Assembly: GCF_039654945.1 (NCBI RefSeq) | Contig: NW_027361856.1 | Coordinates: 3,162,001 to 3,226,000, forward strand | Length of the DNA: 64,000 nt | Reading direction: 5' to 3' | Source: Dendrobates tinctorius | Taxonomy: Eukaryota | In this document: piece by piece, positions 10,520 through 64,000 of the stretch | Layout of the letters: the number at the start of each line of letters is the position of its first letter | Position numbering within the stretch: position 1 is the first letter of the stretch | Program-made: the position numbers and the translations under genes | Notes under the pieces: generated by a model | What the model saw: the letters and a program-made list of their open reading frames with translations, nothing else | Told to the model about the DNA's origin: nothing | Databases searched by the model: none

Positions 10520-11639
10520 TCCAGTTGCAAGTTTGACGGCCTAAGTCTGAGGACCAGAGCACTCTGGAAGAGGTTTTCATCTAGGATATCTCTGTACTTA
10601 GCAGCATTCATGTTTCATTCAATTGCAACCAGTCATCCTGCCCCTGCAGCTGAAAAACACCGCAAAGCATGATGATGCCACCACCATGTTTCACTGTTGG
10701 GATTGTATTGGGCAGGTGATGAGCAGTGCCTGGTTTTCTCCACACATACCGCTTAGAATTATCACCGAAAAGTTCTATCTTTGTCTCATCAGACCAGAGA
10801 ATCTTATTTCTCATAGTCTGGGAGTCCTTCATGTGTTTCTTAGCAAACTCTATGCGGGCATTCATATGTCTGGCACTGAGGAGAGGCTTCCGTCAGGCCA
10901 CTCTGTAAATAAAGGCCAGACTGGTGGAGGGCAGCAGTGTTAGTTGACTTTGTGGAACTTTCTCCCATCTCCCGACTGCATCTGCGGAGCTCAGCCACAG
11001 TGATCTTGGGGTTCCTCTGTACCTCTCTCACCAAGGCTCTTCTCCAACGATTGCTCAGTTTGGTTGGACGACCAGGTCTAGGAAGACTTCTGGTGGTCCC
11101 AAACTTCTTCCATTTAAGGATTATGGAGGCCAATTTGCACTTAGAAACCTTGAGTACAGTAGAAATTATTTTGCAACCTTGGCCAGATCTGTACCTTGCC
11201 ACAATTCTGTCTCTGAGCTCCTTGGCCTGTTCCTTTGACCTCATGATTCTCATTTGGTCTGACATGCACTGTGAGCTGGGAGCTCTTATATAGACAGGTG
11301 TATGCCTTTACAAATCAAGTCCTATCAGTTTAATTACACACAGCTAGACTCCAATGAAGGAGTAGAACCATCTCAAGGAGGATCACAAGGAAATGCACAG
11401 CATGGGACTTACATATGAGAGTCTGAGCAAAGGGTCTGAATACTTATGATCATGTGATATTTCATTTTTTCTTTTTAAATTTGCAAAAATTTCTACATTT
11501 CTGTTTTTTTTTCAGTGAAGATGTGGTGCAGAGTGTACATTAATGAGAAAAAAATGAACTTTTTTGACTTTACCAAATGGCGGCAATGAAACAAAGAGTG
11601 AAAAATGTAAAGGGGTCTGAATACTTTCCATACCCACTG
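10520..11639 (-). mobile_element. Tc1/mariner (IR/DR type) transposon, 3'-truncated, frameshifted transposase
   Basis: TIR CAGTGGGTATGGAAAGTATTCAGACCCC next to TA; inner direct repeat near 11431; MRSKE..RDRIVARYRSGQG, WSDETKIELFG, KHGGG. Confidence 0.9.
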
Positions 11640-22705: not shown

Positions 22706-25503
22706 ACATAGTAACATAGTTATTAAGGTTGAAGGAAGACTTTAAGTCCATCTAGTTCAACCCATATCCTATCCTAACTTGCCCTAACATGTTGATCCAG
22801 AGGAAGGCAAAAAAAACCCATGTGGCAAACAGTAAGATTCACATTGGGGAAAAAAATTCCTTCCCGACTCCACATACGGCAATCAGACTAGCTCCCTGGA
22901 TCAACGCAATATTAAGGAAACTAGTGTATATACCCTGTAATATTATACTTTTCAAGAAAGGCATCCAGTCCCTTCTTAAATTTTAGTAGGGAATCACTCA
23001 TTACAACATCATATGGCAGAGAGTTCCATAGTCTCACTGCTCTTACAGTAAAGAATCCGCGTCTGTGAGAATGCTTAAACCTTCTTTCCTCCAGACGTAG
23101 AGGATGCCCCCTTGTCCCCGTCACAGGTCTAAGAGTAAAAAGATCATTAGAAAGGTCTTTGTACTGTCCCCGCATATATTTATACATTGTAATAAGATCA
23201 CCCCTAAGCCTTTGATTTTCCAAACTAAATAACCCCAAGTGTAATAACCTGTCTTGGTATTGCAGACCCCCCAGTTCCCTAATAACCTTGGTCGCTCTTC
23301 TCTGCACCCGCTCCAATTCAGCTATGTCTTTCTTATACACCGGAGACCAGAACTGTACACAGTATTCTAAGTGTGGTCGCACTAGTGACTTATATAGAGG
23401 TAAAATTATGTTCTCCTCATGAGCATCTATGCCTCTTTTAATGCATCCCATTATTTTATTTGCCTTTGCAGCAGCTGCCTGACACTGGCCACTAAATGTG
23501 AGTTTGTCGTCCACCCATACACCCAGGTCTTTTTCAGTGACAGTTTTGCCCAGTGTTTTACAATTAAGCACATAATTATACATCTTGTTCGCTCTACCCA
23601 AGTGCATGACCTTACATTTATCCCCATTAAAGCTCATTTGCCATTTATCAGCCCAAGCTTCTAGTTTACATAAATCCTCCTGCAATATAAAATTGTCTTC
23701 CTCTGTATTGATTAGCCTGCAGAGTTTAGTGTCATCTGCAAATATTGAAATTCTACTCTCTATGCCCCCTACAAGGTCAATAATAAATATGTTAAAAAGA
23801 AGCGGGCCCAAAACTGACCACTGTGGTACCCCACTGCTAGCCGTGACCCAGTCCGAGTGTGCTCCATTAATTACCACCCTTTGTTTCCTATCCCTGAACC
23901 AGCTCTTAACCCACTTACACATATTTTCCCCTATCCCCATTGTTCTCATTTTATGTATCAACCTTTTGTGTGGCACCGTATCAAAAGCTTTTGAAAAGTC
24001 CATGTACACCACGTCACTGCATTCCCTTTGTCCAGTCCAGAAGTTACCTCTTCATAAAAGCTTATCAGACTAGTCTGACAGGAACGGTCCGTTGTAAACC
24101 CATGTTGATATTGGGTCATGAGGTTATTCTTCTCCAGATACTCCAGTATAGTATCTCTTAGAAAACCCTCCAGGATTTTACCCACAGTTGAGGTTAAACT
24201 TACTGGCCTATAATTTCAAAGTTCAGTTTTTGTCCCCTTTTTGAATATTGGCACCACATTTGCTATACGCCAGTCCTGTGGTACAGAACCTGTTATTATG
24301 GAATCTTTAAAGATTAAAAATAATGGTCTATGTTATGAATGTGTAACCGAGGAGTAAAAAAACACAACAAGCTAAGTCTCAGAAAACCAGAGAAGTTGGT
24401 AACTAAGCAGATTGCAGATCCCTGATCTTAACCGCACAACTAGCAGCAGTCGTGGAGCATTCCTATGATGGTTCTAGATGTCTCATCACAACCGGAGAAC
24501 TACATAAGCCTAAAGCAGGAAAAAAGGAAAACTAACTGCCCCAGAGCAGACCCCAAAGGAAAGACAGCCCCCCACATGTATTGACGGTGAAAAAAGATGA
24601 AAATACAAACAAAGGCAGGAAAATAGGCTGAGCAAACGATGGGGCCTGGCTAACTAAAAAGGACAGGAAAGGAAAAACACTGTCTGCCATCTGCCAAAAA
24701 GAAACCTACAAAAATATTGTCCAACACTTCAGATAGCAAAATTATCCCTGAAGTCACTAGACTTCTGAACCTATATCAGCACTCTGAAATATTCTGAGAC
24801 AGAGCAAAAAATAGGCCAATCTAATAAGGAACAAAAAGCAGAATGGCAAATACTGATTAATAGGAGTGGAAATTCAGCATAACCCCAGCAGGGGCAGACT
24901 GATTACACAAAAAACTGAATTGACCAACAAGCGCAAGTGTGAACATTAGCAAAAAACAAACTTAACTTGAGAAAACTGGAAGAGAGCTGAAGCCCAGGAC
25001 CTGAGAAGCAGACTGAATCACCAGCAACAGGATAGGGCGTCGGCTGTCTTATATCCAGTCTGATACTCCAGAGATCCAATCATTATCTTCCTCATCAGGT
25101 GGCAGATCACTACCACTTAAACCAACCGCACTACCTCCTGTCACCACCAGAGGGAGAATGAAAGGGGAACTCTCAACTGGTGAAGCAGAAAATGAGTTCA
25201 TGACAGGTCTATCTATGACTGTACTTAATTCCTGCAGTACTCGTGGGTGTATCCCATCCGGGCCCGGGTATTTGTCAATTTTAGTGATTTTTAGACGCCG
25301 CCGTACTTCCTGCTGGGTTAGGCAGGTGACATTTAATGGGATTTTATTGTGTAAATGCTGTTGAAAAAAAGTAATTTAGCATATTGGCTTTTTCCTCATC
25401 CTCATCCACCATTTCACCCAGACTATTTTTAAGGGGACAAACACTATCATTTTTTAGCTTCTTACTATTTATGTAGATAAAGAATATTTTGGGATTATTT
25501 TTA
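22706..25503 (-). mobile_element. CR1 LINE, 5'-truncated ORF2 (reverse transcriptase)
   Basis: DFSKAFDTVPH, GVPQWSVLGP, FADDTK, LYKSLVRPHLEYC; ACTATGTT-type tail at 22706. Confidence 0.93.
24331..25205. mobile_element. Solo LTR nested in CR1
   Basis: TGTTATGA...TCATGACA termini flanked by GGTCTA direct repeats. Confidence 0.78.
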
Positions 25504-26150: not shown

Positions 26151-29100
26151 CCCCTTCACTACCAAGGGTGGTTTGCACGTTAACTACCGGGCCAATTTTT
26201 ACAATTCTGACCACTGTACCTTTATGAGGTCATAACTCTGGAACGCTTCTATGGATCCCGGTGATTCTGACATTGTTTTCTCGTGACATATTGTACTTCA
26301 TGTTAGTGGTAAAATTGCATTCAAATAACTTGCGTTTATTTGTGAAAAAAACGGAAATTTGGCGAAAATTTTGAAAATTTCGCAATTTTCCAACTTTGAA
26401 TTTTTATGCCCTTAAATCACAGCGATACGGCACACAAAAAACTTAATACATAACATTTCCCACATGTTTACTTTACATCAGCACAGTTTTGGAACCAAAA
26501 TTTTTTTTTGTTAGGAAGTTATAAGGGTTAAAAATTGACCAGCGATTTCTCATTTTTGCAACACCATTTTATTTTTAGGGACCACTTCACATTTGAAGCC
26601 ACTTTGAGGGGTCTATATGATAGAAAATACCCAAAAGTGACACCATTCTAAAAACTGCACCCCTTAAGGTGCTTAAAACCACATTCAAGAAGTTTATTAA
26701 CCCTTTAGGTGCGTCACAGGAATTTTTTGAATATTAAAAAAAATGAACATTTAACTTTTTTTCACAAAAAAAATACTTCAGGTTCAATTTTCTTTATTTT
26801 ACCAAGGGTAACAGGAGAAATTGGACTGCAAGACTTATTGTGCAATTTGTCCTGAGTACGCTGATACCTGATATTTGGGGGGGAACCACTGTTTCGGCGC
26901 ATGGCAAAGCTCAGAATGGAAGGAGCGCCGTTTGACTTTTTCAATGCAAAATTGGCTGGAATTCAGATCGGACGCCATGTCACGTTTGGCGAGCCCCTGA
27001 TGTACCTAAACAGTGGAAACCCCCCCAAGTGACCCCATTTTGGAAACTAGACCCCCCAAGGAACTTATCTAGATATGTGGTGAGAACTTTGAACCCACAA
27101 GGGCTTCACAGAAGTTTATAACGTACAGCGGTACAATTAAAAAATCATATTTTTTCCACAAAAATGATCTTTTCACCCCCAATTTTTATTTTTCCAAGGG
27201 TAACAGGACCCTAAAAGTTATTGTGCAATTTGTCCTGCGTACGCTGATACCCCATATGTGGGTGTAAATGACTATTTGGGCGCATAGCAGAGCTCGGAAG
27301 GGAAGCAGCGCCATTTGACGTTTTTGGCTAGAATTGAGATCGGACACCATGTCGCGATTGGAAAACCCCTGATGTACCAAAACAGTGGAAACCCCCCACA
27401 AATGACACCATTTTGGAATCTAGACCCCCCAAGGAACTTATCTAGATGTGTGGTGAGAACTTTGAACCCCCAAGGGCTTCACAGAAGTTTATAACGTACA
27501 GCAGTACAATTAAAAAATCATATTTTTTCCACAAAAATGATCTTTTCACCCTCAATTCTTATTTTTCCAAAAGTAACAGGACCCTAAAAGATATTGTGCA
27601 ATTTATCCTGAGTACGCTGATACCCCACATGTGGGGGTAAACCACTATTTGGGCGTATGGCAGAGCTCGGAAGGGAAGCAGCGCCATTTGACGTTTTTGG
27701 CTGGAATTGAGATCAGACACCATGTCGCGTTAGGAAAGCCCCTGATGTACCAAAACAGTAGAAACCCCCCACATATGACACCATTTTGGAAACTAGACCC
27801 CCCAAGGAACTTATCTAGATGTGTGGTGAGCACTTTGAACCCCCCAGTGCTTCACTGAAGTTTATAACGTCCGGGCGTGAAAATAAAAAAATCGTATTTT
27901 TTCCACAAACATGATCTTTTAGTCCCCATTTTTTTATTTTCCCAAGGGTAACAGGAGAAATTGGACCCCAAAAGTTGTTGTCCAATTTGTCCTGAGTACG
28001 CTGTTACCTCATATGTGGGAGAAAACTACTGTATGGGCACACGTCGGGGCTCGGAAGGGAAGTAGTGACGTTTTGGAATGCAGACTTTGATGGAATGGTC
28101 TGCGGGTGTCATGTTGCGTTTGGAGAGCCCCTGATGTACCTAAATAGTGGAAACCCCCCACAAGTGACCCCATTTTGGAAACTAGACCCCCTAATGAACT
28201 TATCTAGATGTGTGGTGAGCACTTTGAACCCCCCAGTGCTTCACAGAAGTTTATAACGACCGGGCGTGAAAATAAAAATATCGTATTTTTTCAACAAACA
28301 TCATCTTTTAGTCCCCATTTTTTTTATTTTCCCAAGGGTAACAGGAGAAATTGGACCCCAAAAGTTGTTGTCCAATTTGTCCTGAGTACGCTGATACCTC
28401 ATATGTGGGAGAAAACTACTGTATGGGCACACGTCGGGGCTCGGAAGGGAAGTAGTGACGTTTTGGAATGCAGACTTTGATGGATTGGTATGCGGGTGTC
28501 ATATGCGTTTGGAGAGCCCCTAATGTACCTAAACTATTGAAACTCCCCACAAGTGACCCCATTTTGGAAACTAGACCCCCCACCGAGCTTATCTAGATGT
28601 GTGGAGAGCACTTTGAACCCCCAAGTGCTTCACAGAAGTTTATAACGCCTGGGCGTGAAAATAAAAAAAACATTTTTTTCCGCAAAATTATATTTTTGCC
28701 CCCAATTTTTTATTTTCCTAAGGGTAACAGGAGAAATTGGACCCCAAAAGTTGTTTTGTAATTTGTCCTGAGTAGGCGGATACCCTACATGTGGGGGTAA
28801 AACACTGTTTGGGCACATGGCAGAGCTTGGAAGGGAAGGAGCACCATTTGACTTTTTCAACGCAGAATTGGCTGGAATTGAGATCAGACGCCATGTTGCC
28901 TTTGGAGAGCACCTGATGTGCCCAAACAGTGGAAACCCCCAATTATAACTCCAACCCGAACCTCAACACACCGCTAANNNNNNNNNNNNNNNNNNNNNNN
29001 NNNNNNNNNNNNNNNNNNNNNNNNNNNNNNNNNNNNNNNNNNNNNNNNNNNNNNNNNNNNNNNNNNNNNNNNNNNNNNNNNNNNNNNNNNNNNNNNNNNN

Positions 29101-32948: not shown

Positions 32949-34330
32949 GTATCCTTTCCAAAATGCAGTCTTTAGGGTGGTGCTGTTCTCCCCTCTCAAG
33001 CCAATGAAGAAACCTGCCCTGCTGCGCTGCAGACAAGAAAGCTTCCAGGGCTGATAAATTGTGTTTCCTTTATTGCAAGGAAGAGAAAGGGGCAATTTAT
33101 GGGGACATTGTCTTATTCTATGGAAATTTCTGAAGATAATAAAAATCTTCAGGTATAAAATGTGGATCCATGGATTTCCTGAAATCTCAATGGTAGAGAT
33201 GGGCGGACACCTGGATGTTCGGGTACGGCCGGTTCGGACGAACAGTTACAAAAAGTTTACCCAGAAGTGTACCCAGATCCAATCCTGGACCTCATTCACT
33301 TTAATGGGGGGCCCAAAAATCCAGTGTTTGCCATGCTGTCATGTGCATGAAAGCGTGGCAAACACCACTTTTGACGGCGATAAAATTATCACCGCCGGCA
33401 AGACAGCCGCGGTTCCCATGCTGTCAAAGAGAGTGAGTGTGCAGCTGTAATCGAAGGTATAAAGTTTACCTCTGGTCACTGGTGTCAGCTGATGGGACTA
33501 CTGCACCCATCACACTACGCCTGCTGCCGCTAATAACAGCGAGAGTAGGTGGTGGCTGATGGAAATATTCATAAGCCTACTCTTGCACTGTAAATAAATA
33601 ATTTTAAAAAATGGCATTTATTCCCCTGTGTTTTTAATAACCAGCCAGGCAAATCTGACAGCTGCAGGCTGCAACCTTAAGCTGGGTGACTGCAGGCTGC
33701 TATTTTTAAGCTGGGGGCAATATCCATGGCCCTTATCCATCCTGAGAATTCCAGCCCCCAGCTGTCTGTTTTAGCCTGGCTGGTTGTCAAAAATGGTGGG
33801 GACCCCATGCCGGTTTTTAAAATTATTTATTTAAATAATTAAAAAATATGGCATGGGGACCCCACTATTTTTGATAACCAGCCTTGCTGAAACTGACAAC
33901 TGAGGGTTGCTGCCTCCAGCTGAGAGTTTTGACTGGCTGGTTGTCAAAAAAACAGAGGAACCCACACTGGAGTTAAACTTTATACCTCTGATCACTGCTG
34001 CGGGCTCACACTGTCATTTGACAGCATGGGATCTGCGGCTGTCTAACTGGCGGTGATGGTTTTACCACTGATCAGAAGCAGTGTTTGTCGCGCTGTCATG
34101 TGCATGACAGCGCGACAAGCACCCGGTGTTCGGGGGGCCGAACCTGAACAGTAACACGGACTTCCTGGAGAAGTCCGTGTTTGTTGTCCGTGCCTGAACA
34201 GTAGTTGTTTAGTATGGACGCCAAACTTTACTGTTTGGGTTGGCCCATCTCTACTCAATGCCAATTTATTTGACTTGCCTATCAAATTCCCCATGCATAC
34301 CAAAATCTTTCCTTAATCTGAGTCCTTCAG
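32949..34330 (+). other. U12-type (minor spliceosome) GT-AG intron
   Basis: 5' splice site GTATCCTTT; branch point TTTCCTTAAT at 34308-34317, close to the acceptor AG. Confidence 0.9.
33194..34253. mobile_element. hAT MITE inside the U12 intron
   Basis: TIR TAGAGATGGGC / GCCCATCTCTA; 8-bp TSD CTCAATGG/CTCAATGC; long internal inverted arms. Confidence 0.85.
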
Positions 34331-34545
34331 CTGGAGTGTCTGTTGGTGACCCAGTCCTGAGGACTGGAAAGCCTCTGTCCGTAGAGCTCGGCCCTGGAAT
34401 TATGGGGAACATCTTTGATGGGATCCAACGACCATTGAAAGATATTGCAGAACTGACGAAAAGCATCTACATCCCTCGCGGAATCAATGTGACTGCTTTA
34501 TCACGCGATATTAAATGGGAATTTATTCCAGATAAGAACATCAGG
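34331..34545 (+). CDS. ATP6V1A: V-ATPase A exon (exon 4 equivalent), 215 nt
   Basis: [42 protein letters not shown]; AG/GTAAGT. Confidence 0.95.
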
Positions 34546-34673
34546 GTAAGTAACCGCATAATAGGCGATGAGCGTACATTTACTTACATCTTCAAAAGAA
34601 TGATTACTCCTTTGGTAATATCCACCAGCAGAGACACGGTCATTATTTCATTTTTTACACTCTTCATAAATTA

Positions 34674-36264
34674 CAGTTGTGTGAAAAAGTGATTGCCCCC
34701 TTCCTGATTTCCTATTATTTTGCATGTTTGTCACACTTAAATGTTTTGATCACCAAACAAACTTTAATCTTAGACAAAGATAACACAAGTAATCACAAAA
34801 TGCAGTTTATAAATGAAGGTCTTTATTATTAAGGGAAAAAGAATCCAAACCTACAGGGCCCTGTGTGAAAAAGTGATTGCCCCATCCCTTAAATCATAAA
34901 GTAAACTGTCGTTTATCACATCTTTACGAAGCTGAGATCAAATTCCCTAACCACACCCAGGTCTGATTACTGCCACACCTGTTCTCAATCAAGAAAACGC
35001 TTAAATAGGACCTGCCTGACAAAGTGAAGTAGACCAAAAGATCCTCAAAAGCTAGGCATCATGCAGCGATCCAAAGAAATTATGGAACAAATGAGAAACA
35101 AAATAATAGAGATCTATCAGTCTGGGAAAGGTTATAAAGCCATTTCTAAAGCTTTGGGACTCTAGCGAACCACAATGAAAGCCATTGTCCACAAATGTTG
35201 AAGACACGGAACAGTGTTGAATCTTCCCAGGATTGGTCAGCTGACCAAAATTACCTCTAGAGCACAGCGACTACGCATCTAAAAAGGAACAATAAAACCT
35301 CACAACAACATCCAAAGAACTACAGGCCTCACTTGCCTCAGTTAAGGTCAGTGTTCATGACTCCACCTTAAGAAAGAGACTGGGCAAAAAATGGCCTGCA
35401 TGTTAGAGTTCCAAGACTAAAACCACTGCTGAGCAATAAGAACATAAAGGCTCGTCTCAGTTTTGCCAGAAAACATCTTGATAATCCCCAAGACTTTTGG
35501 GAGAATACTCTGTGGACTGATGAGACAAAACTTAAACTTTTTGAAAGGTGTATGTCCCATTACATCTGGTGTAGACGTAACAGAGCATTTCAGAAAAGGA
35601 ACATCAAACTAACAGTAAAATATGGTGGTGGTAATGTGATGGTTTGGGGCTGTTTTGCTGCTTCAGGACCTGAAAGACTTGCTGTCTGCCAAAAAATCCT
35701 GAAGGAGAATGTCTGGTCATCTGTTCATGACTTCAAGCTGAAGCACACTTGGGTTATGCAGCAGGACAATGATCCAAAACACAACAGTAAGTCCAAGTAA
35801 GTCCACCACTGAATGGCTTAAAAAAATTATGACTTTGGAGTGACTTAGTTAAAGTCCTACCCTTGAGATGCTGTGGCATGACCTTAAAAAGACGGTTCAT
35901 GCTTGGAAACCCCCAATGTGGCAGAATTACAGCAATTCTGCAGAGATGAGTGACCAAAATTCTACAGAGCGCTGTAAAAGTCTCATTGCCAGTTATCACT
36001 AACGCTTGATTGAAGTTGTTGCTGCCAAAGGTGGCCCAACCAGTTATCATGTTTAGGGGGTGATCACTTTTTCACATAGGGCCCTGTAGGTTTGGATTTC
36101 TTTTTCCTTTAATAATAAAGACCTTCATTTATAAACTAAATTTTGTGATTATTTGTGTTTTCTCTGTCAAATATTTACCTTTGTTTGGTGATCTGAAACA
36201 TTTAAATGTGACAAACATGCAAAAGAATAGATCAGGAAGGAGCAAATACTTTTTCACACAACTG
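34674..36264 (+). mobile_element. Near full-length Tc1 transposon, transposase pseudogenised
   Basis: TA-CAGTTGTGTGAAAAAG...CTTTTTCACACAACTG-TA; ~210-bp IR/DR arms; WTDETK, KYGGG, QQDNDPKH; multiple stops. Confidence 0.93.
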
Positions 36265-38349: not shown

Positions 38350-39498
38350 GGATCTCCCGATACCGGAGGTTTGGGGGAAATCTGGAATTAAAAGGGTGGG
38401 GGATGTTTTTAGTGGAGTGGAGTTCCTGAAATTCGGTGAGATCAGGGTTAAATATAATTTACCGTCATCTGAGCTAGTCTTTTACACCATGTTGAAAGAT
38501 AGAATTTGGAAATTCATAAAAGGGAAGACTTTGAATTATGAAATGCTATCTTCACTATTGTGCAACCTTAAAAATAAAAACCTCTGGAGTCTGCGTAATT
38601 TGTATAGATCTGTCGTCAAAGACCTAACGAGCCACAAAAACATATACATGAAGAGATGGGAGTCCGATTTTGGTGCTGATATCCGTCTCTAGAACTGGAA
38701 CGATGCCATCAAAAACACTTACAATTCCAACATATCAATGGGTCTTCATGAGAGTTATTTCAAATTATTAAATAGATGGTACTATACCCCGACGAGGTTA
38801 TCGCATTTTAACACAGAGCTATCTTCCTTGTGCTGGAGAGATTGTGGACACCAAGGGAACCTCTACCATATTTTCTGGGGTTGTTCAAAAATCAAAAACC
38901 TCTGGCTTCAAGTCACACAGCACATTAACCTCATTGCTAAGGACTTCACAATTACACCCGAAAGAGCACTTCTTTCATTAGACATGGAACAATTTGATGA
39001 TTCGGTAAGACACATTATCATACACATCCTCTTAGTGACCAAGACCATGTTAGCACAATGGTGGAAGAAAGCAGAGGTTCCCAAGTTTTCGGTCATACTT
39101 GACAAGATAGGCCAACACAGTGATTTAGAACGCAGATTTGCGATTAACAACAATCACATTCACAAATACTCAAAAAAATGGAAGACCTGGAACAACAAAT
39201 TTCATATCAAATAGACTTAACAAGAGGCACTATATTTTGAAGTTTAAACCTGGGCGCTTTAGTACAGGGATGCTGTATCTCCTTCCAAGAATGTTACCCC
39301 ATAATAAGGATTGTCGATTTTTTTTTTCTTTTATGTTGTTCGATATATGTTATTCTATGCCTATTTGTGGGTTCTCTAGTTTTTAAAAAATTTTTCCGTA
39401 CCTGTACAAGGTTGTTTATTCCCCACTCCCTTCCCTCCCTTCCTACCTTCCTTTCCCTACCCTGTTTATTTCTAAAAAACCAATAAAATTATTTGAAA
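38350..39498 (+). mobile_element. L1/Tx1-like LINE 3' fragment inserted in a minisatellite
   Basis: RWYYTPTRL..CWRDCGHQGNLYHIFWGC; AATAAA and A-rich end; 11-bp TSD ACAAATCAAAA. Confidence 0.85.
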
Positions 39499-47908: not shown

Positions 47909-48298
<390 letters not shown>

Positions 48299-48775
48299 TG
48301 AGAAAAGTGATCTGTGAAAAAAGTAGAGAAAACTTCACATCCCAAATTCCTTGTATAAGAACTTCCAAACTTTATTCCATTTTGCTAGACAGACAGCTGT
48401 GGGTTGATATTAATAGCCTAGGAAGGGGTCATGGATATTGGCCTCCTCCCAGACTAAAAACATCATCTCTCAGCTACTCCAGAAAAGGCGCATCAATAAG
48501 ATGCTCCAAATCTGGCACTTAGCTTCACACTTCCCACTTGCTCTGTTGCGTTGGCAAGTGGGTTGACAGTATTGGAGATCTTGTCAGACTTGTATTGGCA
48601 GCTGATACGAAGCCCAGGTTAGTAATGGTTAGACGTCTATAAGACACCCCCACTACTAACCCCATAGTGATATTGTATACAAAAATACACTTCCAGAGCA
48701 GAGTCCTTTATTTGAAAAAAGTGACACAGACTCTTTTATTAACCCCTTTAACCCAAAGCGTGGTTTGCATGTTAA

Positions 48776-49291: not shown

Positions 49292-50759
49292 TTAATGATC
49301 AGGCCAATTTACAATTCTGACCACTGTCCCTTTATGAATTAATAACTCTGGAATGCTTCCATGGATCCCGGTGATTCTGAAAATGTTTTCTTACTACATA
49401 TTGTACTTCATGATAGTGGTAAAATTTCTTTGATATGACTTGTGTTTATTTGTGAAAAAAATGGAAATTTGGAGAAAATGTTGAAAATTTTGCAATTTTC
49501 CAACTTTGAATTTTCGTGCCCTTAAATCACAGAGATATGTCACAAAAAATACTTAATAATTAACATTTCCCACATGGTTAATTTACATCAGCACAATTTT
49601 GGAACCAAAATTTTTTTTCGTTAGAAAGATATAAGGGTTAAAATTTAAACAGCGATTTCTCATTTTTACAACACCATTTTTATTTTGGGACTACATCACA
49701 TTTGAAGTCACTTTGAGGAGTCTATATGATAGAAAACACCCAAAAGTGACACCAGTCTAAAAACTGAACCCCTGAATGCACTTAAAACCACATTAAAAAA
49801 GTTTATTAACCCTTTAGGTGCTTCACAGGAATTTTTGGAATGTTTTAGAAAAAATGAACATTTAACTTTTTTCACAAAAAATTTAATTCAGATCCAATTT
49901 TTTTTATTTTACCAAGGGTAACAGGAGAAATTGGACCCCAAAAGTTGTTATACAATTTGTTCTGAGTATGCTGATACCCCATATATGCAGGTAAACCACT
50001 GTTTGGGGGCATGGCAGAGCTCGGAAGGGAAGGAGCGCCTTTTCAATGCAAAATTGGCTGAAATTGAGATTGGACACCATGTCGCATTTAGAGAGCCCCC
50101 CGATGTGCCTAAACAGTGGAAACCCCCCACAAGTGACACCATTTTGGAAACTAGACCCCCTAAGGAACTTGTATAGATGTGTGGTGAGCACTTTGAACCC
50201 CTAGGTTTTTCACTAAAGTTTATAACGCCTGGGTGTGAAAATAAAAAATCATATTTTTTCCACAAACATGATTTTTAGTCCCCAATATTTTATTTTCCCA
50301 AGGGTAATAGGGGAAATTGGATGCCAAAAGTTTTTGCCCAATTTGTCCTGAGTACGCCAATACCCTATATGTGGGAGATAACCACTGTTTGGGCACACGG
50401 AAGAGCTCGGAAGGGAAGGAGCACCGTATGACTTTTTTAAACCAAAATTGGCTGGAATTGAGATCAGATGCAATGTCGCATTTGGAGAGCCCCTGATGTG
50501 CCTAAACAGTGGACACCCCCCACAATTGACCCACTGTTGGAAACTAGACCCCCTAAGGAACTTATCTAAATGTGTGGTGACCACTTTGAACCCCAAAGTG
50601 ATTCACAGAAGTTTATAACGTTGAGCCGTAAAAATAAAAAATCATATTTTTTTCACAAAAATGATCTTTTCGCCCCCAAGGAGCACATTTGACTTTTTCA
50701 ATGCAGAATTGGCTGGAATTGAGATCAGACGCCATGTGCCTAAACATTGCATACCCCCC

Positions 50760-50965: not shown

Positions 50966-52924
50966 TGGGAAAATGGAAATAAATACATTTTTTTATTTTT
51001 CCCTAACTAATGGGGTGATAAAGGGGTTTTGATTTATTATTTTTTTATTTTGATCACTGTGATAGGGCCTATCACAGTGACCAAAGTAAACCAATCGGAA
51101 AAAATCTATTGTTGCTGGGTGCCGGCTGGCAGATCTCGGCGGGCGCCCGCCATTTTATCCCAGCGACCCAGGGGACTTCAGGGGGGCTTGCAGGGACAAC
51201 GGAGGTACTGGGGGGGGTGATCGGAGGACCCTATTTCTCTCTCCCCTGATGTGCAATCACATCAGAGGAGAGAGAAATTAAATGGAAAATCAGACTTTTT
51301 TTTTGTGGTCACTGTTATACCATTAACAATGGCGATCGCAACAACGGGGTTGGTAAAAACCAACTTGAATCATGTTCTCTGGGGTCTCGGCTATGCCTGG
51401 CAACCGAGACCCTGGAGAAATTCCGACGCTGGGGGGCGCTATAACCTTAAACCTCAGCGCCATTAAAAAGCAGCGCTGTGGTTTAAGTACCCTTAATTGC
51501 CACTGCTAAAAGGCATATCGACGGTCATAAAGAGGTTAAAATGTAACTCTCATCATTCTCCCCTGCTCGCGCCAATCGCCGGCAGAGCAGAGGAGAATGA
51601 CGAGAGCCGTGTTCAGCACCTGGCGCTGGGGAACAGTGCTTACTGCAACGCTTCTTCACTGGTGCCGTACATGATGCGGCACACACATGCCACATGTGTG
51701 CCACAAGCATTACACACACGGACACTGACATCTCCGATACCAGAAATATATATCAGGACATGTGAAAGAGGCATTACAGCGGGTTTTTATGTTTGGCAGC
51801 TGTCAGATGCTAAAAGATGCTTTTTATTGCAAAAAATAGTTTTTGCATCACCATATTTTGAGAGCTATAATTTTTCCATATTTTGGCCCACAGAGTCATG
51901 TGAGGTCTTGTTTCTTGTGGGACGAGCTGACATTTTTATTGGTATAATTTTCAGGCACATGACATTTTTTGATCGCTTTCTATTCCAATTTTTGGGAGAC
52001 AAAATGAGCAAAAACCAACAATTGATGAATTTCTTATATTTTGGGGGGGGCGTTTACACCGTTCCACGTGTGGTAAAATTGATAAGGCAGTTTTATTCTT
52101 CGCATCAGTTCGATTACAGCGATACCTCATTTATATATTTTTTTAATGTTTTGGCGCTTTTGTATAATAAAAACTATTTTATAGAAAAAATAATTGTTTT
52201 TGCATCAATTTACTCTGACAGCTATAGCTTTTATATTTTTTCGCTGATGATGCTGAATGACGGATCGTTTTTTTGCGGGACAAGATGTTATCAGCGGTAC
52301 CATGTTTATTTATATCCGTATTTTTTACCGGGTGTTATTCCACTTTTTGTTTGGTGGTATGATGTGTGAGGTAGCGCTGTCATGTAAGTAGGGGGTTCTC
52401 GCTTGCAGCGATCAAAAAAACACATCCGGCACCGGATTTTCAACAAATCATAGTCCAAGAGGTTTATTCATCCTTCATAAACCTCCAGCAGTAATATGCA
52501 ACAGTCTTATAGCAGACAGCAGGGTATCTTCACACTGGAGCTTTGCTCCCCTATAGCCCTCTAGTCACACAGGCTGTGCTTCATCTAGCCAGCAGGCTAT
52601 ACAGTCTCTCAGTTGTAGTCCTGTCTCCGGGTTACCTTGCATGCTGCTTTACACTGCTAACGTTCCTTCCCTCTCCCTGGGAACGGTCAGGCACACATCG
52701 CCATTAGTCACAGCGTCCACACGTGCTGTTAGTGAGGAGATCCTTCTCCTCACGGGACCTTCCAAACTGGACCAATCAGGTCCCAGCATTCACCCCCATG
52801 TGACCAGACCTCAGGTACCTTTTATGGTCTATAACCACACCCACAAGTGATCACATGACTATGACCTCACCCAAGGTCCTATTGCACACAGGCTTCCCTG
52901 ACACATTGTAACGGAACGTACTAC

Positions 52925-54616
52925 TCAGCAGTACCTCTGCTGATCATTATGATCGTTCAGTATCCTACACCTATCAGGGTAATGGAAATGCTTATACGGT
53001 TGTCCTGGGACACCCACACAGCGCCCCCTAGCGGACACAGCGATCACTGCACCACATACCTCCCCCCTATGTTCAAACCTGTGGGGTTGAACACACAGCA
53101 TAACCCCCAGCTCTCGAGACTGGGCACTCACTACACCTTGCCCACCAGGTCGAGAGAACCGTCTCCATTTGTCAAACGGCCTCATCTCTACGTTAGGCCT
53201 CCCCCGCTCCCAGCGGTCATAATACCGGTCATTGTCTTTGACCCTCCAGTCACGGTTTGTCTGCGTCATCAGACACTCTCTAGTCTCCACCTGTCTGCAG
53301 TACGCTTCGTCACCTGATCTTTCTCTCACTGACCGTCTCTCTCGGTTGGTGCGGTCATAAGTCTTAGTAGAGCCTGCTGTCTGGTCTGAGTCTGACTCAG
53401 TCAGCGACTCACAGGAACTATGGTCTTTCAACGTCATCCTGCCAGTCGAACTACCCCTTGCTGACACTCTTCTGCCACCTGCCATGTCACTTCTTGGAGG
53501 AACCGTTCGGGTCCTTACATTTTGGGTTGGAGGCGGCCGCCACCTGGTATTCTGCATTTCTTTATTAATTCGCCGACGGTCCAGCCTCAACTGCTCAATT
53601 TCTTGCAGGTACTCCACTCGATACTCCACGAGCATCCGAAAGTCTCTCAGGCTTTCCACGGAGCCAACCACCATGATGGAAATCCTATCCACTTCCCTGG
53701 ATACATGGTCTTCATCATCAGGAGGGATCCTCACCCTCACCACACCGGAGATATTCACAAGGTCTTGCATTACCTTCCCGGACCTTCCAATGATTCTCCC
53801 AATCAGAGTTTTGGGTACCAGAACCACATCTTTCCTCAAACCCAACCGATCCATAGCCTCTCTTGCTATCTCTAGGCGTCGAGCAGCCTTCATATTACTC
53901 TGCCTAACCAATTGTTTGACACGTAGACACTGCAAATGCATCTCCTTCAGGACAGCTACTCTGTTTGATGTATCTTCCCTGGCTGATACTATCACCAACT
54001 GCCGAGTCTCAGGTGCCCAGTGCACCTCACACGCTTTGACCGCCTCTTTGAAAGCCTCATGTACCCCTTCATCCGCGCAGGCTTCTTGCATGTCTTGGGG
54101 TACCTCGATCACAGATTTGAAGGTCGTGGTCTTGCTCTCTTCCTGGACAGAAGACTCTGGCTTTACCACGGACACTTCCCTCACTACAGTTGACCCGACT
54201 GGGTGACTGTCTTCTTCGGCTCTTTGCTCACCAACTTCAGGAGATTTTATCTCTTCGCGAGCCTTTGCCAAGATAGGTACCGGCAGGTCCGTCTTGTTAT
54301 CACTCGGACCCAGCTGCTGCACATCTCCGTCCAAGATCTTCTCCCGCAGAAGACCTTCTACTACTCCTCTGAGTTCCTCCATCTCTTCCTTAAGGCTCTT
54401 GTTCACACTTTGCCAGGTGGACAGGTGACCTCTGAGCTCCAAGACATCTTTCTTGAGCCCCTCCACCTTGTGCTCGGCCAATTGTCTCAAGATTCTCTCT
54501 TGTTTGACATGTTCTTCCACTGTCTCTTTTATTAGTTGTATCTCCTGATCTTGTTCTCTTTTGGCCAGCACATGTCGCACCACTAATTCTTTAACTATAT
54601 CGTCAAAGGGTACCAC
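52925..54616 (-). CDS. FXR1-derived KH-domain ORF (coiled coil + KH0 + KH2 + NES + C-terminal motifs); track start is GTG
   Basis: IEVPQDMQEACADEGVHEAFKEAV, VPKTLIGRIIGRSGKVMQDLVNISGVVRVRI, YLQEIEQLRLDR and TESDSDQTA..TNRERRS parallel FXR1 motifs; intronless. Confidence 0.85.
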   Translation of the reverse strand: MVPFDDIVKELVVRHVLAKREQDQEIQLIKETVEEHVKQERILRQLAEHKVEGLKKDVLELRGHLSTWQSVNKSLKEEMEELRGVVEGLLREKILDGDVQQLGPSDNKTDLPVPILAKAREEIKSPEVGEQRAEEDSHPVGSTVVREVSVVKPESSVQEESKTTTFKSVIEVPQDMQEACADEGVHEAFKEAVKACEVHWAPETRQLVIVSAREDTSNRVAVLKEMHLQCLRVKQLVRQSNMKAARRLEIAREAMDRLGLRKDVVLVPKTLIGRIIGRSGKVMQDLVNISGVVRVRIPPDDEDHVSREVDRISIMVVGSVESLRDFRMLVEYRVEYLQEIEQLRLDRRRINKEMQNTRWRPPPTQNVRTRTVPPRSDMAGGRRVSARGSSTGRMTLKDHSSCESLTESDSDQTAGSTKTYDRTNRERRSVRERSGDEAYCRQVETRECLMTQTNRDWRVKDNDRYYDRWERGRPNVEMRPFDKWRRFSRPGGQGVVSAQSRELGVMLCVQPHRFEHRGEVCGAVIAVSARGRCVGVPGQPYKHFHYPDRCRILNDHNDQQRYC

Positions 54617-55548
54617 TGAGTCAGTCCTATCAGTCGAGTGAACCCCCGATTACCCTCTGACTGTGCTTCTATTCCCGTTATCCTCTCGATCAGGTTACCA
54701 CCAGTCCTGTCACGAGTTTCAGTCAGCACAGCATTAGATTCTGTCCTTGTGGTGGCTACTGGCAACAACACATCACAGTCACACCACATCGTACGGTGAA
54801 CCCCCAAGACACTCTCTATCCGTGTGACAGCTCCGCTCTTTTCGTTTACCACACCATTCTCATTCACACTGTGGTACCCTTCAGGTGACGTCAGGTCAGT
54901 AAATTCGTCTGACGCAATTCTTTCTCCGGTCACCCTTACGTCTAGCCTGTCCACGTTAGGAGGTGTCAGCGTCTCAGTGTCTGCTAGCACTACCGTAGAA
55001 ACGTCTCTATCGTCCTGCCCCACATCTTTAAATATGACACGGCGCCTCTCAAAGGTATGCACTAGGTTTGGTGGCGTACTACCACCTTGGCACTCCCCCT
55101 TCGTCTTCTCATTTAGGACTCTGTCCACCTTATAATTCACGATGACCCTGTGGAGGCAGCGAACTCTGACGTTTTTCTCGGTCAGAGCTAAACCGAGCGG
55201 AGTTCCTGTCAGAGTCACCTGACTCTTTGAGTCCAGCCAACCAGGGACTCCTTCCCGATGCAGCATCACAGTACACACCTGCGGCCCATCATCACTATCC
55301 GGAAAGGATATCCCACATTCTGACCAAGTCATACACACACACTGCGGTACTCCAGACATACCCACTGAGCCATCCAGTGCTGTCATTTCTTCAAACTTGG
55401 CCCCTTTCTGGACCACCACCCCACTATGGGTTGCCGGCCCCTCCCAGGACTCCACCCCTTTTTGGGTTACCGCGCCCTTTTGGGACTCCACCCGCTTTTG
55501 GGCTACCACCCCAATTTGGGTCACCGCCCCCTTTCTGGATTTCCCCAT
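54595..55548 (-). CDS. Upstream ORF with N-terminal repeats and a degenerate retroviral-type protease segment (317 aa)
   Basis: ATG in strong Kozak context (GACATGG); QKGAVT/QKGVES repeats; PQVCTV..GWLDSKSQVTL..VRCLH resembles a Gypsy LLDSGS protease. Confidence 0.55.
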   Translation of the reverse strand: MGKSRKGAVTQIGVVAQKRVESQKGAVTQKGVESWEGPATHSGVVVQKGAKFEEMTALDGSVGMSGVPQCVCMTWSECGISFPDSDDGPQVCTVMLHREGVPGWLDSKSQVTLTGTPLGLALTEKNVRVRCLHRVIVNYKVDRVLNEKTKGECQGGSTPPNLVHTFERRRVIFKDVGQDDRDVSTVVLADTETLTPPNVDRLDVRVTGERIASDEFTDLTSPEGYHSVNENGVVNEKSGAVTRIESVLGVHRTMWCDCDVLLPVATTRTESNAVLTETRDRTGGNLIERITGIEAQSEGNRGFTRLIGLTQWYPLTI

Positions 55549-57501
55549 GTCCGTTCTGCAGAACTTCTTATGCCACAGTTCACACACTACAGTTTATGTA
55601 TTTTTTTTTTTTACGATACCACACAAGTCTTTGTTGGCACCACCACAGCTCCTGCTGTCACCGATCACCGGCTGCTGTTCACGCACACACAGCGGCTGGT
55701 GTCACTGCAGCTCCTGCTGCGCCGTCTTCGTGGACGCGCCGATCCACCCGAAGCCGCTTGTCTCCTTCGTAACCCCGCCGGGTTACCGGAAGCCGCTTGT
55801 CAACCTCGAAGATAAAAGAAACCACAAAAGCTCGCCCATAGGGCCTTTCCAGTGCGCAGGTATAATGGGTATAAAGAAATAATACAGGGTACTCACCCTT
55901 AATAGTTGTGTAAAGCCACAACTACTGTATCCGCTTAGTCACATGCAATAAAGCTGCAGCAAGATGGTGTAGACAGACAGCGTCTGCTACCAATGGTCAA
56001 AGAGGAGATCCCAAAAAAGGAAAAACACCAGGTCCCTGTGCTGTGAGACGTTCGTGACCCCACTGAGCCACAGCAAGCACCTTCAGGTTTTTTTGCAGAG
56101 GAAAAAGAAAAAACACATGCACGAAAAAACTCCAAAAAACTCACGTATACTGTCTGTGCGCTATTCAGGATGTACCGTCTCCGCCTGAGACCGTCCAACA
56201 CACAGGGCACACCGGGTGCTATTCAGGGAGCCGACCCTCCTCCCAGGGTCTCCCAACACACCGGCTTCACCAGGTCCAAGGTCGTATCACGTGTTCCAGG
56301 GATCCGATTCCTCTCCCAGAACCTCCCAACACTGACCCTCCAGGACCTTGCTCACTGACCCAGGTCAGTACAACAACGAACACCTGTCCGTTACCTGTGT
56401 CGGCCACACAGGTCGTCGGGTACCTCTTATCCGCAGAGGCACCCTAGCAATCACCAGTCTCTTTCACTGAGCTGCTGTCAGTATACGGCTTCCACAACAG
56501 TCAGTCCTCCTGGCTCAGCGTTGCCAGCACTGCAACATGTGCTGTTGGAACCGCAGCCCTTAGCAACAACGTTTTTTTTTTTTTCTTGGCAGTCCTTTTC
56601 TGTTGCCCCCAGCAACAAGGCTACTATATTGCCCTTAGCAACTCTCCACCATTTGTGAGGTAGCGCTGTCATGTAAGTAGGGGGTTCTCGCTTGCAGCGA
56701 TCAAAAAAACACATCCGGCACCGGATTTTCAACAAATCATAGTCCAAGAGGTTTATTCATCCTTCATAAACCTCCAGCAGTAATATGCATCAGTCTTATA
56801 GCAGACAGCAGGGTATCTTCACACTGGAGCTCTGCTCCCCTATAGCCCTCCTAGTCACACAGGCTGTGCTTCATCTAGCCAGCAGGCTATACAGTCTCTC
56901 AGTAGCAGTCCCGTCTCCGGGTTACCTTGCATGCTGCTTTACACTGCTAACGTTCCTTCCTTCTCCCTGGGAACGGTCAGGCACACATCGCCATTAGTCA
57001 CAGCGTCCACACGTGCTGTTAGTGAGGAAATCCTTCTCCTCACGGGACATTCACCCCATGTGACCAGACCTCAGGTACCTTATATGGTCCATAACCACAC
57101 CCACAGGTGATCACATGACTATGACCTCACCCAAGGTCCTATTGCACACAGCCACACACAGGCTTTCCTGACACATTGTAACGGAACGTACTACTCAGCA
57201 GTACCTCTGCTGATCATTATGATCTTTCAGTATCCTACACCTATCAGGGTAATGGAAATGCTTATACGGTTGTCCTGGGACACCCACACAGCGCCCCCTA
57301 GCGGACACAGCGGTCACTGCACCACAGATGATAAAGCATTGTTTTTTGCCTTGTTTTTACTTTATGGTGTTCACTAAAGGGGTTAACTAGTAGTTCATAT
57401 AATGGAGCCCAATGACAGATTAAAACACAAATGAAAGAATAGATATATACACATAGAATACATATATATACTGTATATATATATATACACATGTCATTGA
57501 G

Positions 57502-60739: not shown

Positions 60740-63700
60740 ACTGTACCTTTATGAGGTCATAACTCTGGAACGCTTCCATGGATCCCGGTGATTCTGACAT
60801 TGTTTTCTCATGACATATTGTACTTCATGTTAGTGGTAAAATTTCATTCAAATAACTTGCGTTTATTTGTGAGAAAAACGGAAATTTGGCGAAAATTTTG
60901 AAAATTTTGCAATTTTCCAACTTTGAATTTTTATGCCCTTAAATCACAGAGATACAGCACAAAAAAAACTTGATAACTAACATTTCCCACATGTTTACTT
61001 TACATCAGCACAATTTTGGAACCAAAATTTTTTTTTGTTAGGAAGTTATAAGGGTTAAAAGTTGACTAGCGATTTCTCATTTTTACAACACCATTTTATT
61101 TTTAGGACCACATCACATTTGAGGTCACTTTGAGGGGTCTATATGATAGAAAATACCCAAAAGTGACACCATTCTAAAAACTGCACCCCTTAAGGTGCTC
61201 AAAACCACATTCAAGAAGTTTATTAACCCTTTAGGTGCGTCACAGGAATTTTTTTGAATATTTAAAAAAAAAAATGAACATCTAACTTTTTTTCACAAAA
61301 AAAATACTTCAGGTTCAATTTTTTTTATTTTACCAAGGGTAACAGGAGAAATTGGACTGCAAAAGTTATTGTGCAATTTGTCCTGAGTACGCTGATACCT
61401 GTTATGTGGGGGGAACGACTGTTTCGGCGCATGGCAGAGCTCAGAATGGAAGGAGCGCCGTTTGACTTTTTCAATGCAAAATTGGCTGGAATTCAGATCG
61501 GACACCATGTCACGTTTGGAGAGTCCCTGATGTACCTAAACAGTGGAAACCCCCTAAAAGTGACCCCATTTTGGAAACTAGGCCCCCCAAGGAACTTATC
61601 TAGATATGTGGTGAGAACTTTGAACCCACAAGGGCTTTACAGAAGTTTATAACGTACAGCAGTACAATTAAAAAATCATATTTTTTCCACAAAAATGATC
61701 TTTTCACCCCAATTTTTATTTTCTCAAGGGTAACAGGACCCTAAAAGTTATTGTGCAATTTGTCCTGAGTACGCTGATGCCCCACATGTGGGGGTAAACC
61801 ACTATTTGGGCGCATGGCAGAGCTTGGAAGGGAAGCAGCGCCATTTGACGTTTTTGGCTGGAATTGAGATCGGACATCATGTCGCGATTGGAAAACCCCT
61901 GATGTACCAAAACAGTGGAAACCCCCCACAAATGACACCATTTTGGAAACTAGACCCCCTAAGGAACTTATCTAGATGTGTGGTGAGAACGTTGAACCCC
62001 CAAGGGCTTCACAGAAGTTTATAACATAAAGCTGTACAATTAAAAAATCATATTTTTTTTCCACGAAAATGATCTTTTCACCCTCAATTCTTATTTTTCC
62101 AAGGGTAACAGGACCCTAAAAGTTATTGTGCAATTTGTCCTGAGTACGCTGATACCCCACATGTGGGGGTAAACCACTATTTGGGCGCATGGCAGAGCTC
62201 GGAAGGGAAGCAGCACCATTTGACGTTTTTGGCTGGAATTGAGATCGGACACCATGTCACGATTGGAAAACCCCTGATGTACCTAAACAGTGGAAACCCC
62301 CCACAAATGACACCATTTTGTAAACTAGACCCCCCAAGGAACTTATCTAGATGTGTGGTGAGCACTTTGAACCCCCCAGTGCTTCACAGAAGTTTATAAC
62401 GCCCGGGCGTGAAAATAAAAAATTTGTATTTTTTCCACAAACATGATCTTTTAGTCACCATTTTTTTATTTTCCCAAGGGTACCAGGAGAAATTGGACCC
62501 CAAAAGTTGTTGTCCAATTTGTCCTGAGTATGCTGATACCCCATATGTGGGAGAAAACTACTGTATGGGCACACGTCGGGGCTCGGAAGGGAAGTAGGGA
62601 CGTTTTGGAATGCAGACTTTGATGGAATGGTCTGCGGGTGTCATGTTGCCTTTGGAGAGCCCCTAATGTACCTAAACAGTGGAAACCCCCCACAAATGAC
62701 CCCATTTTGAAAACTAGACCCCCTAAGGAACTTATCTAGATGTGAGGTGAGCACTTTGAACCCTCAAAGGCTTCACAGAAGTTTATAATGCCATGGCATG
62801 AAAATAAAAAAATCGTATTTTTTCCACAAACATGATCAATTAGTCGCCAATTTTTTTATTTTCCCAAGGGTAACAGGAGAAATTGAACCCCAAAAGTTGT
62901 TGTCCAATTTGTCCTGAGTACGCTGACACCCCATATGTGGGAGAAAACTACTGTATGGGCACACGTCGGGGCTCGGAAGGGAAGTAGTGACGTTTTGGAA
63001 TGCAGACTTTGAGGGAATGTTCTGCGGGTGTCATGTTGCCTTTGGAGAGCCCCTAATGTACCTAAACAGTGGAAACCCCCCACAAATGACCCCATTTTGG
63101 AAACAAGACCCCCTAAGGAACTTATCTAGATGTGTGGTGAGCACTTTGAACCCCCAAGGGCTTCACAGAAGTTTATAATGCCCGGGCATGAAAATAAAAA
63201 AATCGTATTTTTTCCACAAACATGATCAATTAGTCCCCAATTTTTTCATTTTCCCAAGGGTAACAGGAGAAATTGGACCCCAAAAGTTGTTGTCCAATTT
63301 GTCCTGAGTACGCTGACACCCCATATGTGGGAGAAAACTACTGTATGGACACACGTCAGGGCTCGGAAGGGAAGTAGTGACGTTTTGGAATGCAGACTTT
63401 GATGGAATGGTCTGCGGGTGTCATGTTGCCTTTGGAGAGCCCCTAATGTACCTAAACAGTGGAAACCCCCACAAATGACCCCATTTTGGAAACGAGACCC
63501 CCTAAGGAACTTATCTAGATGTGTGGTGAGCACTTTCAACCCCCAAGGGCTTCACAGAAGTTTATAATGCCCGGGCATGAAAATAAAAAAATTGTATTTT
63601 TTCCGCAAACATGATCAATTAGTCCCCAATTTTTTCATTTTCCCAAGGGTAACAGGAGAAATTGGACCCCAAAAGTTGTTGTCCAATTTGTCATGAGTAC

Positions 63701-64000
63701 GCTGACACCCCATATGTGGGAGAAAACTACTGTATGGACACACGTCAGGGCTCGGAAGGGAAGTAGTGACGTTTTGGAATGCAGACTTTGATGGAATGGT
63801 CTGCGGGTGTCATGTTGCCTTTGGAGAGCCCCTAATGTACCTAAACAGTGGAAACCCCCACAAATGACCCCATTTTGGAAAAGAGACCCCCTAAGGAACT
63901 TATCTAGATGTGTGGTGAGCACTTTGAACCCCCAAGGGCTTCAAAGAAGTTTATAATGCCCGGGCATGAAAATAAAAAAATTGTATTTTTTCCACAAACA
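60740..64000. repeat. piggyBac-type element body with 375-390-bp tandem array, running off the window end
   Basis: Near-identical to 26211-28900; at least 7 units. Confidence 0.88.

Follow-up and report, generated by a model that had tools for sequence, protein, structure and literature searches.

The locus described here raises the question of why part of FXR1, a gene of the fragile-X family, should be maintained inside a mobile element of a poison frog, and what the encoded protein might do there. The window, by which we mean the whole 64,000-nucleotide stretch analysed (Dendrobates tinctorius, assembly GCF_039654945.1, contig NW_027361856.1, positions 3,162,001 to 3,226,000, forward strand), contains on its minus strand an element of 4,962 bp (52365-57326), delimited by repeat comparison and bounded by long terminal repeats (LTRs) with TG...CA ends, whose 3′ reading frame encodes a shortened FXR1 module. 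The carrier is a non-autonomous derivative of Gmr1-type Gypsy LTR retrotransposons, and the FXR1 module is kept under purifying selection; the identity of the element and the purifying selection on its module are together almost certain. As to function, we tentatively favour, at a little below even confidence, a cis-acting adaptor that would tie the element's RNA to the FXR proteins of the host.

A shortened FXR1 module under purifying selection

The 3′ part of the element's open reading frame (ORF), a minus-strand frame at 52925-54649, carries a KH0 domain (PF17904, E 4.5e-15) and next to it a lone KH domain that aligns to KH2 of FMRP. The module has no introns and keeps KH0 with the first coiled coil (CC1), KH2, and the helix that holds the second coiled coil (CC2) and the nuclear export signal (NES). 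From the full FXR1 set (two Agenet domains, KH0, KH1, KH2, NES and RGG), the Agenet domains, KH1 and RGG are gone and the NES leucines are altered. Its parts are as follows.

53870..54130, minus strand: KH0 and coiled coil CC1 (FXR1 exons 5-7), with the N202 equivalent at 53894-53896
53852..53869, minus strand: KH1 deletion junction, at which the first codons of exon 8 are joined to mid exon 9 with 180 bases lost
53606..53851, minus strand: last helix of KH1 and KH2, with GRSG at 53777-53788, I297 at 53789-53791 and Met at position 304 (53768-53770)
53567..53608, minus strand: CC2 helix (FXR NES region), in which V361 reads Ile and the NES leucine L435 reads Arg
53303..53494, minus strand: degenerate FXR1 C-terminal remnant (exons 14-15; z 6.5, 0/300 shuffles), with no RGG left

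An earlier sequence-only reading of this DNA held that the protein passes from KH0 almost straight into KH2, and alignment to FXR1 agrees: the module has 202 residues against 262 in the same-genome FXR1 spliced from its exons, through an in-frame loss of 60 codons (180 bases). The breakpoints lie within exons 8 and 9, off the exon boundaries; they meet at an AA(A/G) codon, a short stretch that both sides share. Skipping of exon 8 is ruled out as the cause, since that exon measures 171 bases against the 180 lost and its first codons are kept; the deletion thus took place within the element and was not acquired by capture of a skipped isoform. It is common to all 86 module-covering copies compared (26 motif-picked loci and two sets of 30 top protein matches) and to four Ranitomeya proteins. 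The motif sample comprised the first 30 of 207 loci matching a 3′ DNA motif, from which four were left out, three being partly deleted and one lacking the module. Removal of the Agenet domains, likewise claimed earlier, is also supported, no remnant having been detected in six upstream regions relative to shuffles (z -1.1 to 0.4); a genome search with the Pfam model Tudor_FRX1 gave no match even at the intron-split host genes and is hence uninformative.

Residues are numbered from P0064, in which N202, G266, I304 and V361 fall at those numbers; the changes G266E and I304N occupy the same positions in FXR1 and FMR1 (PMC10635158). The GxxG loop of KH2 is intact in the window, as had been noted, and is kept in 25/26 sampled copies, the N202 equivalent in 26/26. 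In the loop itself GR(S/L/F)G has replaced GKNG, and the residue after GxxG-K-V, position 304, is no longer Ile but Met in the window and in 25/26 sampled copies; the Ile of IIG that had been taken for the site of FMRP I304N is in fact I297. The NES has been placed at FMRP 424-LKEVDQLRLERLQID-438 (PMC6232958), with the core QLRLERLQID (PMC3380850), and its counterpart in the window reads LQEIEQLRLDRRRI. None of the 26 sampled copies has Leu at the L435 position, and at the L432 position eight of them have Arg or Gln; the P0005 subfamily has Gln there, and two Ranitomeya proteins (P0008 and P0009) retain both leucines. The conserved feature of this region is the helix, rather than the NES leucines; the sequence-only reading erred in calling the NES intact, and its proposal of nuclear export by the module is weakened because these leucines are not conserved.

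Selection was measured as Nei-Gojobori ratios of nonsynonymous to synonymous divergence (dN/dS) between single natural copies. For KH0, KH2 and CC2 together the ratio was 0.22 (0.13-0.34) between L084 and L114 and 0.29-0.31 between L084 and L086 or L087 (L084-L086 0.31, 0.19-0.58); elsewhere it was 0.42-0.45 in the protease part, 0.30-0.34 in the coil, 0.68-0.85 in the linkers and 0.73-0.87 in the tail. Among the 26 motif-picked copies, grouped on the tail because binning by synonymous divergence (dS) of the module is biased, the module ratio was 0.64 among young copies, 0.42 among older ones and 0.33 across the two groups; the corresponding tail values were 0.89, 0.81 and 1.00. Changes in the module that were private to single copies numbered 55 synonymous to 119 nonsynonymous, against 46:49 for shared changes (Fisher p 0.008); the tail showed no such difference (44:99 private, 32:78 shared, p 0.78), nor did the linker (p 0.24). 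Since shared changes are constrained and private ones look neutral, selection acts during replication of the element and not after insertion. Half of the sampled copies (13/26) are free of stops and frameshifts in the module, the other 13 being broken, and a comparison of 42 element and host sequences shows no variation at 21/202 positions of the module.

Origin of the module and of its carrier

The donor was sought in a tree built from 35 sequences over 202 columns, after removal of the KH1 columns; the only frog FXR1 in it was that of this genome. Element copies with and without KH1 form one clade (100/98) adjoining the same-genome FXR1 (99/94), and by the approximately unbiased test (p-AU) FMR1 and FXR2 are rejected as donors (0.018 and 1e-5), which bears out the earlier claim of a capture from FXR1; amino-acid identity of the module to that gene is 43-56% and nucleotide identity 57-64%. 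Two KH1 searches (eight matches among nine and eight candidates) returned only the three host genes and five intronless decayed copies (L069-L073, on C1, C308, C108, C153 and C191) that keep KH0-KH1-KH2. In all five the GxxG loops of both KH1 and KH2 are destroyed, a loss common to them; two of them, L069 and L072, also have the N-terminal part of the element, and a younger piece without KH1 interrupts L070. A separate capture of the KH1-bearing copies is rejected (p-AU 0.012), as is their being direct ancestors of the KH1-less ones, for they have their own shared loss of both loops and form a sister clade. On this reading, a single capture of spliced FXR1 gave rise to two lineages: one destroyed both RNA loops and died out, and the other lost KH1 but expanded with its KH2 loop retained. 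The loss of KH1 predates the divergence of the Dendrobates and Ranitomeya copies.

In poison frogs the family numbers at least hundreds of copies. A module search of the D. tinctorius genome returned 6,525 candidates, a figure not equal to a copy number (as with the other candidate counts given here), and the 150 of them that were scored ranged over 87-100% identity; a search for the second subfamily, of P0005 type, added 150 scored copies at 98-100%. The closest named proteins come from D. tinctorius, Ranitomeya imitator and R. variabilis. A profile search with the N-terminal part against 1.84 billion representatives gave nine matches, eight to named dendrobatids and one to an unrelated repeat, and an atlas search with the protease-like part gave no usable match. 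The P0005-type subfamily (L114-L143, L210, L211) is very young, the LTRs of L210 and L211 having 0 mismatches. One copy, L086, pairs an N-terminal half of P0005 type with an FXR1 module of window type, so that the cassette recombines between subfamilies and these are mosaic.

Around the module, the element is built as follows.

57327-57330 and 52361..52364: target-site duplication GATG, 4 bp, at both element flanks
56654..57326, minus strand: 5′ LTR, 673 bp, TG...CA
56634..56651, minus strand: primer-binding site for tRNA-Ala(AGC), mutated in the window copy, the first 9 bases matching
54595..55548, minus strand: 5′ ORF part, 317 codons owing to a frameshift, with short repeats, degenerate protease and linker
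55030..55281, minus strand: degenerate Gypsy aspartic protease, in which DSG reads DSK (z 12.9 against the protease of the autonomous element L204)
54697..54885, minus strand: fragment like the N-terminal part of gammaretroviral capsid p30 (PF02093 E 2.5e-4, below the cut-off; murine leukaemia virus capsid E 6e-4)
54338..54600, minus strand: coiled coil, with only generic coil matches and none to helper elements
53297..54300, minus strand: cargo slot, holding the FXR1-derived cassette here and a myosin-9 tail in a sister subfamily
53054..53095, minus strand: Gypsy pol C-terminus remnant (CVQPHRFEHRGEVC), containing the polypurine tract (53057-53067)
52365..53056, minus strand: 3′ LTR, 692 bp, into which the element ORF extends

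The coding capacity is a single long ORF, of ~900 codons in several other copies and broken in the window by a one-base frameshift near 54647; the polypurine tract sits just upstream of the 3′ LTR, inside the end of this ORF. The primer site starts two bases past the 5′ LTR, and other copies have the full 18-mer corresponding to the 3′ end of tRNA-Ala(AGC). Target duplications of 4 bp were also seen at 7/7 other elements displayed. The two LTRs of the window element differ at 14 of 662 aligned bases, which dates the insertion to ~4 million years at a rate of 2.5e-9 (bioRxiv 2023.11.06.565769). Contigs of 3/4 sequence runs join across the insertion site (52360/57327), as would be expected either from an allele lacking the insertion or from further copies of the repeat that the element hit.

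Gmr1 elements are defined by a SCAN gag and an integrase (INT) upstream of the reverse transcriptase (RT) (PMC8220671, PMC4131045). Domain scans of the element found no SCAN capsid, zinc knuckle, INT, RT or RNase H (RH). Its protease (PR) part is homologous to that of L204 (z 34.9 for P0008, in addition to the window value listed above); Pfam RVP matched only at E 0.19-0.2, in two of five tested. DSG is intact in older subfamilies (P0007; L144-L173), and P0007 has two protease-like domains. The same genome holds autonomous elements with the order SCAN-CCHC-PR-INT-RT-RH (L204, L206), and the young ones among these (L204-L206, L208) have one ORF running into the 3′ LTR. They share with the family the 4-bp duplication, the ORF end entering the LTR and the 3′ end, and their LTR is 76% identical over ~220 bases to that of the youngest (P0005) subfamily. 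The primer-site 18-mer has 1,632 exact genome matches, both autonomous and non-autonomous kinds being found among 30 loci inspected, and young copies with identical LTRs coexist with young autonomous elements. The autonomous elements, labelled Gmr1-type by domain order and SCAN, are likely the helpers that supply particles and enzymes. A retroviral gag-pro-pol-env set was not found: the Gag_p30 match, from which an endogenous retrovirus (ERV) origin was considered and rejected, is only a short insert, a piece of ~60 residues present in the window's subfamily and missing from L086/L087-type copies, and would represent a third captured fragment confined to one subfamily.

In the sister subfamily L216-L227 (e.g. 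C159:1830664-1833960), which has the same ends, protease remnant and coil, FXR1 is absent and a 240-residue myosin-9 tail with an internal deletion lies between flanks equivalent to window positions 54300 and 53297, which delimits an exchangeable cargo slot. A search for this subfamily gave 878 candidates, of which 150 were scored at 89-100% identity. In 11 copies, a sample of low power, the myosin cassette gave no indication of purifying selection (private 26:72, shared 6:16; L220 was dropped as a near-duplicate).

Elsewhere in the window, ORFs at 912-3155, 6713-9611, 10840-11265, 18123-19562, 22921-24003 and 38738-39214 carry motifs resembling those of further transposons (hAT-like transposase, BEL/Pao, Tc1, Gypsy RT and two long interspersed element RT ends), the first of them flanked by 130-base arrays. 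Exon-like stretches at 34258-34692 and 47990-48301 resemble V-ATPase subunit A, and the element perhaps lies in or next to that gene. A tandem repeat of ~373-393 bases forms three arrays (26787-28940, 49902-50679 and 61320-64000), and elsewhere in the genome (C250:10381670-10682649) a large tandem array of tRNA genes (Ala, Tyr, Asn, Leu) runs to hundreds of units.

Candidate functions of the module

The AlphaFold2 model of the module, a step that the sequence-only reading had proposed, predicts that it folds (pLDDT 90.4), with the last helices of KH0 and KH1 fused into one 42-residue helix (59-100), KH2 whole, and KH0 superposing on FMRP at 1.2 Å. FXR1 dimerises through a heteromeric CC1-CC2 contact that N202P or V361P breaks and for which the Tudor domains are dispensable (PMC10635158). 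In a predicted complex of the module with residues 118-382 of lizard FXR1, used as a stand-in partner and without alignments, FXR1 346-379 (CC2, with V361) packs on element residues 62-98 (CC1, with the N202 equivalent). The score was 0.65, against 0.00 for the best of three controls; the passing mark is reached by 51/78 solved and 2/108 mismatched microbial pairs, and by 39/65 and 2/126 in eukaryotes. Contacts recur between runs to at least 90%, and the partner pLDDT is 80-81. The prediction indicates that the dimer surface is kept and not that host binding occurs. The earlier suggestion that the module may oligomerise with host FXR/FMRP proteins gains support from the conservation of both coiled coils and from this prediction, which does not tell self from host partners.

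As a cis-acting adaptor, the newly made module protein would bind its own encoding RNA through KH2; isolated FXR1 KH2 binds a kissing-complex RNA at ~42 nM, and KH1 shows no binding (PMC2722981). The loss of KH1 and RGG would strip it of binding to ordinary FXR1 target mRNAs, and through CC1-CC2 it would oligomerise with itself and with FXR1, FMR1 and FXR2. Joining FXR dimers would give the element RNA protection, localisation, packaging or access to helper particles, the helpers supplying particles and enzymes to the FXR1-carrying element. Single copies would keep the protein despite possible free riders because the benefit acts in cis, an argument also made in PMC13534243, and such population logic favours a cis benefit over a shared one.

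Several observations weigh against the adaptor. Mobilisation does not require the FXR1 module, since a sister subfamily has spread with a myosin-9 tail in the same slot, and the extinct KH1-bearing lineage with both GxxG loops destroyed fits a decoy better than an RNA binder. With the GxxG loop altered and Met at position 304, RNA specificity may differ or be lost. The pass of the predicted complex may reflect family likeness, since close relatives of a true partner pass as well, and the predicted CC1-CC2 contact is also compatible with self-association only. Contigs of the four runs, which are only putatively RNA, cover 28-30 of 30 element bins, a coverage that does not establish transcription. 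On the evolutionary side, the donor tree came with a software warning of two long branches meeting, and module dS between L084 and L114 is 1.14 against 0.4-0.5 in the flanks, from which it follows that the subfamilies are mosaic and that single pairwise ratios mix histories.

A more far-reaching version, which we regard as doubtful, is that an LTR element swapped Gag-Pol for a mini-FXR1 that would plug into the FXR1/FMRP network through CC1-CC2, hold RNA through KH2 and poison FXR-dependent silencing at thousands of copies, with an exchangeable slot (FXR1, myosin-9 tail, ERV capsid piece) and a share in the inflation of poison-frog genomes.

The main rival of the adaptor is a dominant-negative decoy, which we consider unlikely, in which mixed CC1-CC2 dimers without KH1, Agenet and RGG would block the FXR network or small-RNA silencing and so relieve repression of the element and its helpers. 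It would explain why precisely the dimerisation parts are retained and the mRNA-binding parts lost, and it accords with the passing complex prediction, with the disruption of the FXR1 network by the single KH1 change G266E (PMC10635158), with the activation of transposons in fly gonads upon loss of dFmr1 (PMC5454977, a review), and with a sister lineage that inactivated both GxxG loops yet kept the folds. That RNA-dead lineage is, however, the extinct one (five decayed copies), and KH2 with its GxxG, superfluous to a pure decoy, is conserved (dN/dS 0.33; 25/26 copies). The benefit of a decoy would moreover be spread over all copies, leaving weak selection on any single one, yet the shared changes show purifying selection; and the literature searched gave no vertebrate evidence of FXR1 restricting LTR elements.

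Self-assembly alone, with the module as a homo-oligomeric RNA-binding scaffold that replaces Gag functions and leaves host FXR unengaged, seems to us distinctly improbable. The element does lack the SCAN capsid and zinc knuckle that its helpers have, CC1 and CC2 lie in one chain, and another oligomerising rod, the myosin-9 tail, fills the same slot. The predicted FXR1 interface nevertheless passes and uses conserved positions, and the myosin rod shows, within the low power of its test, no comparable selection.

Very unlikely, and already largely refuted, is the reading of the cassette as a passenger without protein function that only serves, for the sake of RNA stability or size, to maintain an uninterrupted frame as far as the 3′ LTR. 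Every deletion is in frame, the ORF enters the LTR like that of the helpers, the myosin cassette that fills this slot elsewhere appears neutral, and half of the sampled modules have stops or frameshifts; against this, selection is domain-specific (module 0.22-0.33 versus tail 0.75-1.0 in the same frame), and the invariant module positions extend across element and host sequences.

A host-domesticated FXR1 retrogene family, suggested by NCBI labels such as 'FXR1-like' or 'fragile X messenger ribonucleoprotein 1 homolog' on some copies, is improbable in the extreme, for the copies lie between LTRs with target duplications, some LTR pairs being identical, their private changes look neutral, and half of those sampled are broken. 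Least credible of all is an attack at the RNA level, in which small RNAs from the captured stretch would silence host FXR1 as in Drosophila telomeric elements, for which captured fragments of the silencing genes nxf2, piwi and aub are a precedent (PMC13534243): nucleotide identity to host FXR1 is too low here, with synonymous sites near saturation (~79% was already deemed too low for targeting in that paper), and selection acts on amino acids.

Significance and comparison with known systems

Host-gene capture by transposons is known, but a captured protein that is remodelled and selected in a high-copy vertebrate LTR element is rare. The family amounts to a natural deletion analysis of FXR1, in which Agenet, KH1 and RGG are dispensable and KH0/CC1, KH2 and CC2 are retained; the retained parts suggest that proteins of the fragile-X family have an interface with retrotransposon RNA. 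It makes an FXR role in vertebrate transposon control directly testable, offers a natural KH1-less FXR1 for work on structure and dimerisation, identifies the 'FXR1-like' gene models of dendrobatid annotations as ORFs of a mobile element, and is an active contributor to the very large genomes of poison frogs. No description of an FXR1-carrying mobile element was found in the literature searched, with supplements and subscription papers outside its scope, and none of the terms 'fragile', 'FMR' and 'FXR' occurs in the main text of the poison-frog genome papers checked.

The element resembles Gmr1-type Ty3/Gypsy elements in its TG...CA LTRs, 4-bp duplication, tRNA-Ala primer site, polypurine tract in the ORF end, protease and pol C-terminus; unlike them, it lacks capsid, zinc knuckle, INT, RT and RH and carries a host cassette instead. 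With vertebrate FXR1 it shares KH0/CC1, KH2 with GxxG, the CC2 helix and the exon 14-15 remnants, but its module is fused to a preceding protease remnant and coiled coil, is multicopy and mobile, and has unconserved NES leucines.

Pack-MULEs, Helitrons and acutely transforming retroviruses also carry spliced host sequence, as do crocodilian ERVs that captured host genes (PMC4299795). The frog case differs from all of these in being a Gypsy derivative, in the stepwise remodelling of its domains and in purifying selection across subfamilies and genera. The Xenopus elements 1A11 and Xretpos (PMC4585706), compared by description only, likewise come from an amphibian, have LTRs and a single ORF but lack pol, and are expressed in embryos; they differ in being called Gag-like, and no FMR or fragile term was found in that paper.

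The nearest known concept is the capture of silencing genes by Drosophila telomeric elements, which is RNA-based (PMC13534243). TART and its relatives, too, are selfish elements in which part of a host gene for RNA regulation became fixed, accompanied by higher copy number and a proposed counter-defence role; they are, however, non-LTR elements that work through small RNAs at ~90% identity, whereas the frog capture is in frame, 57-64% identical and selected as a protein.

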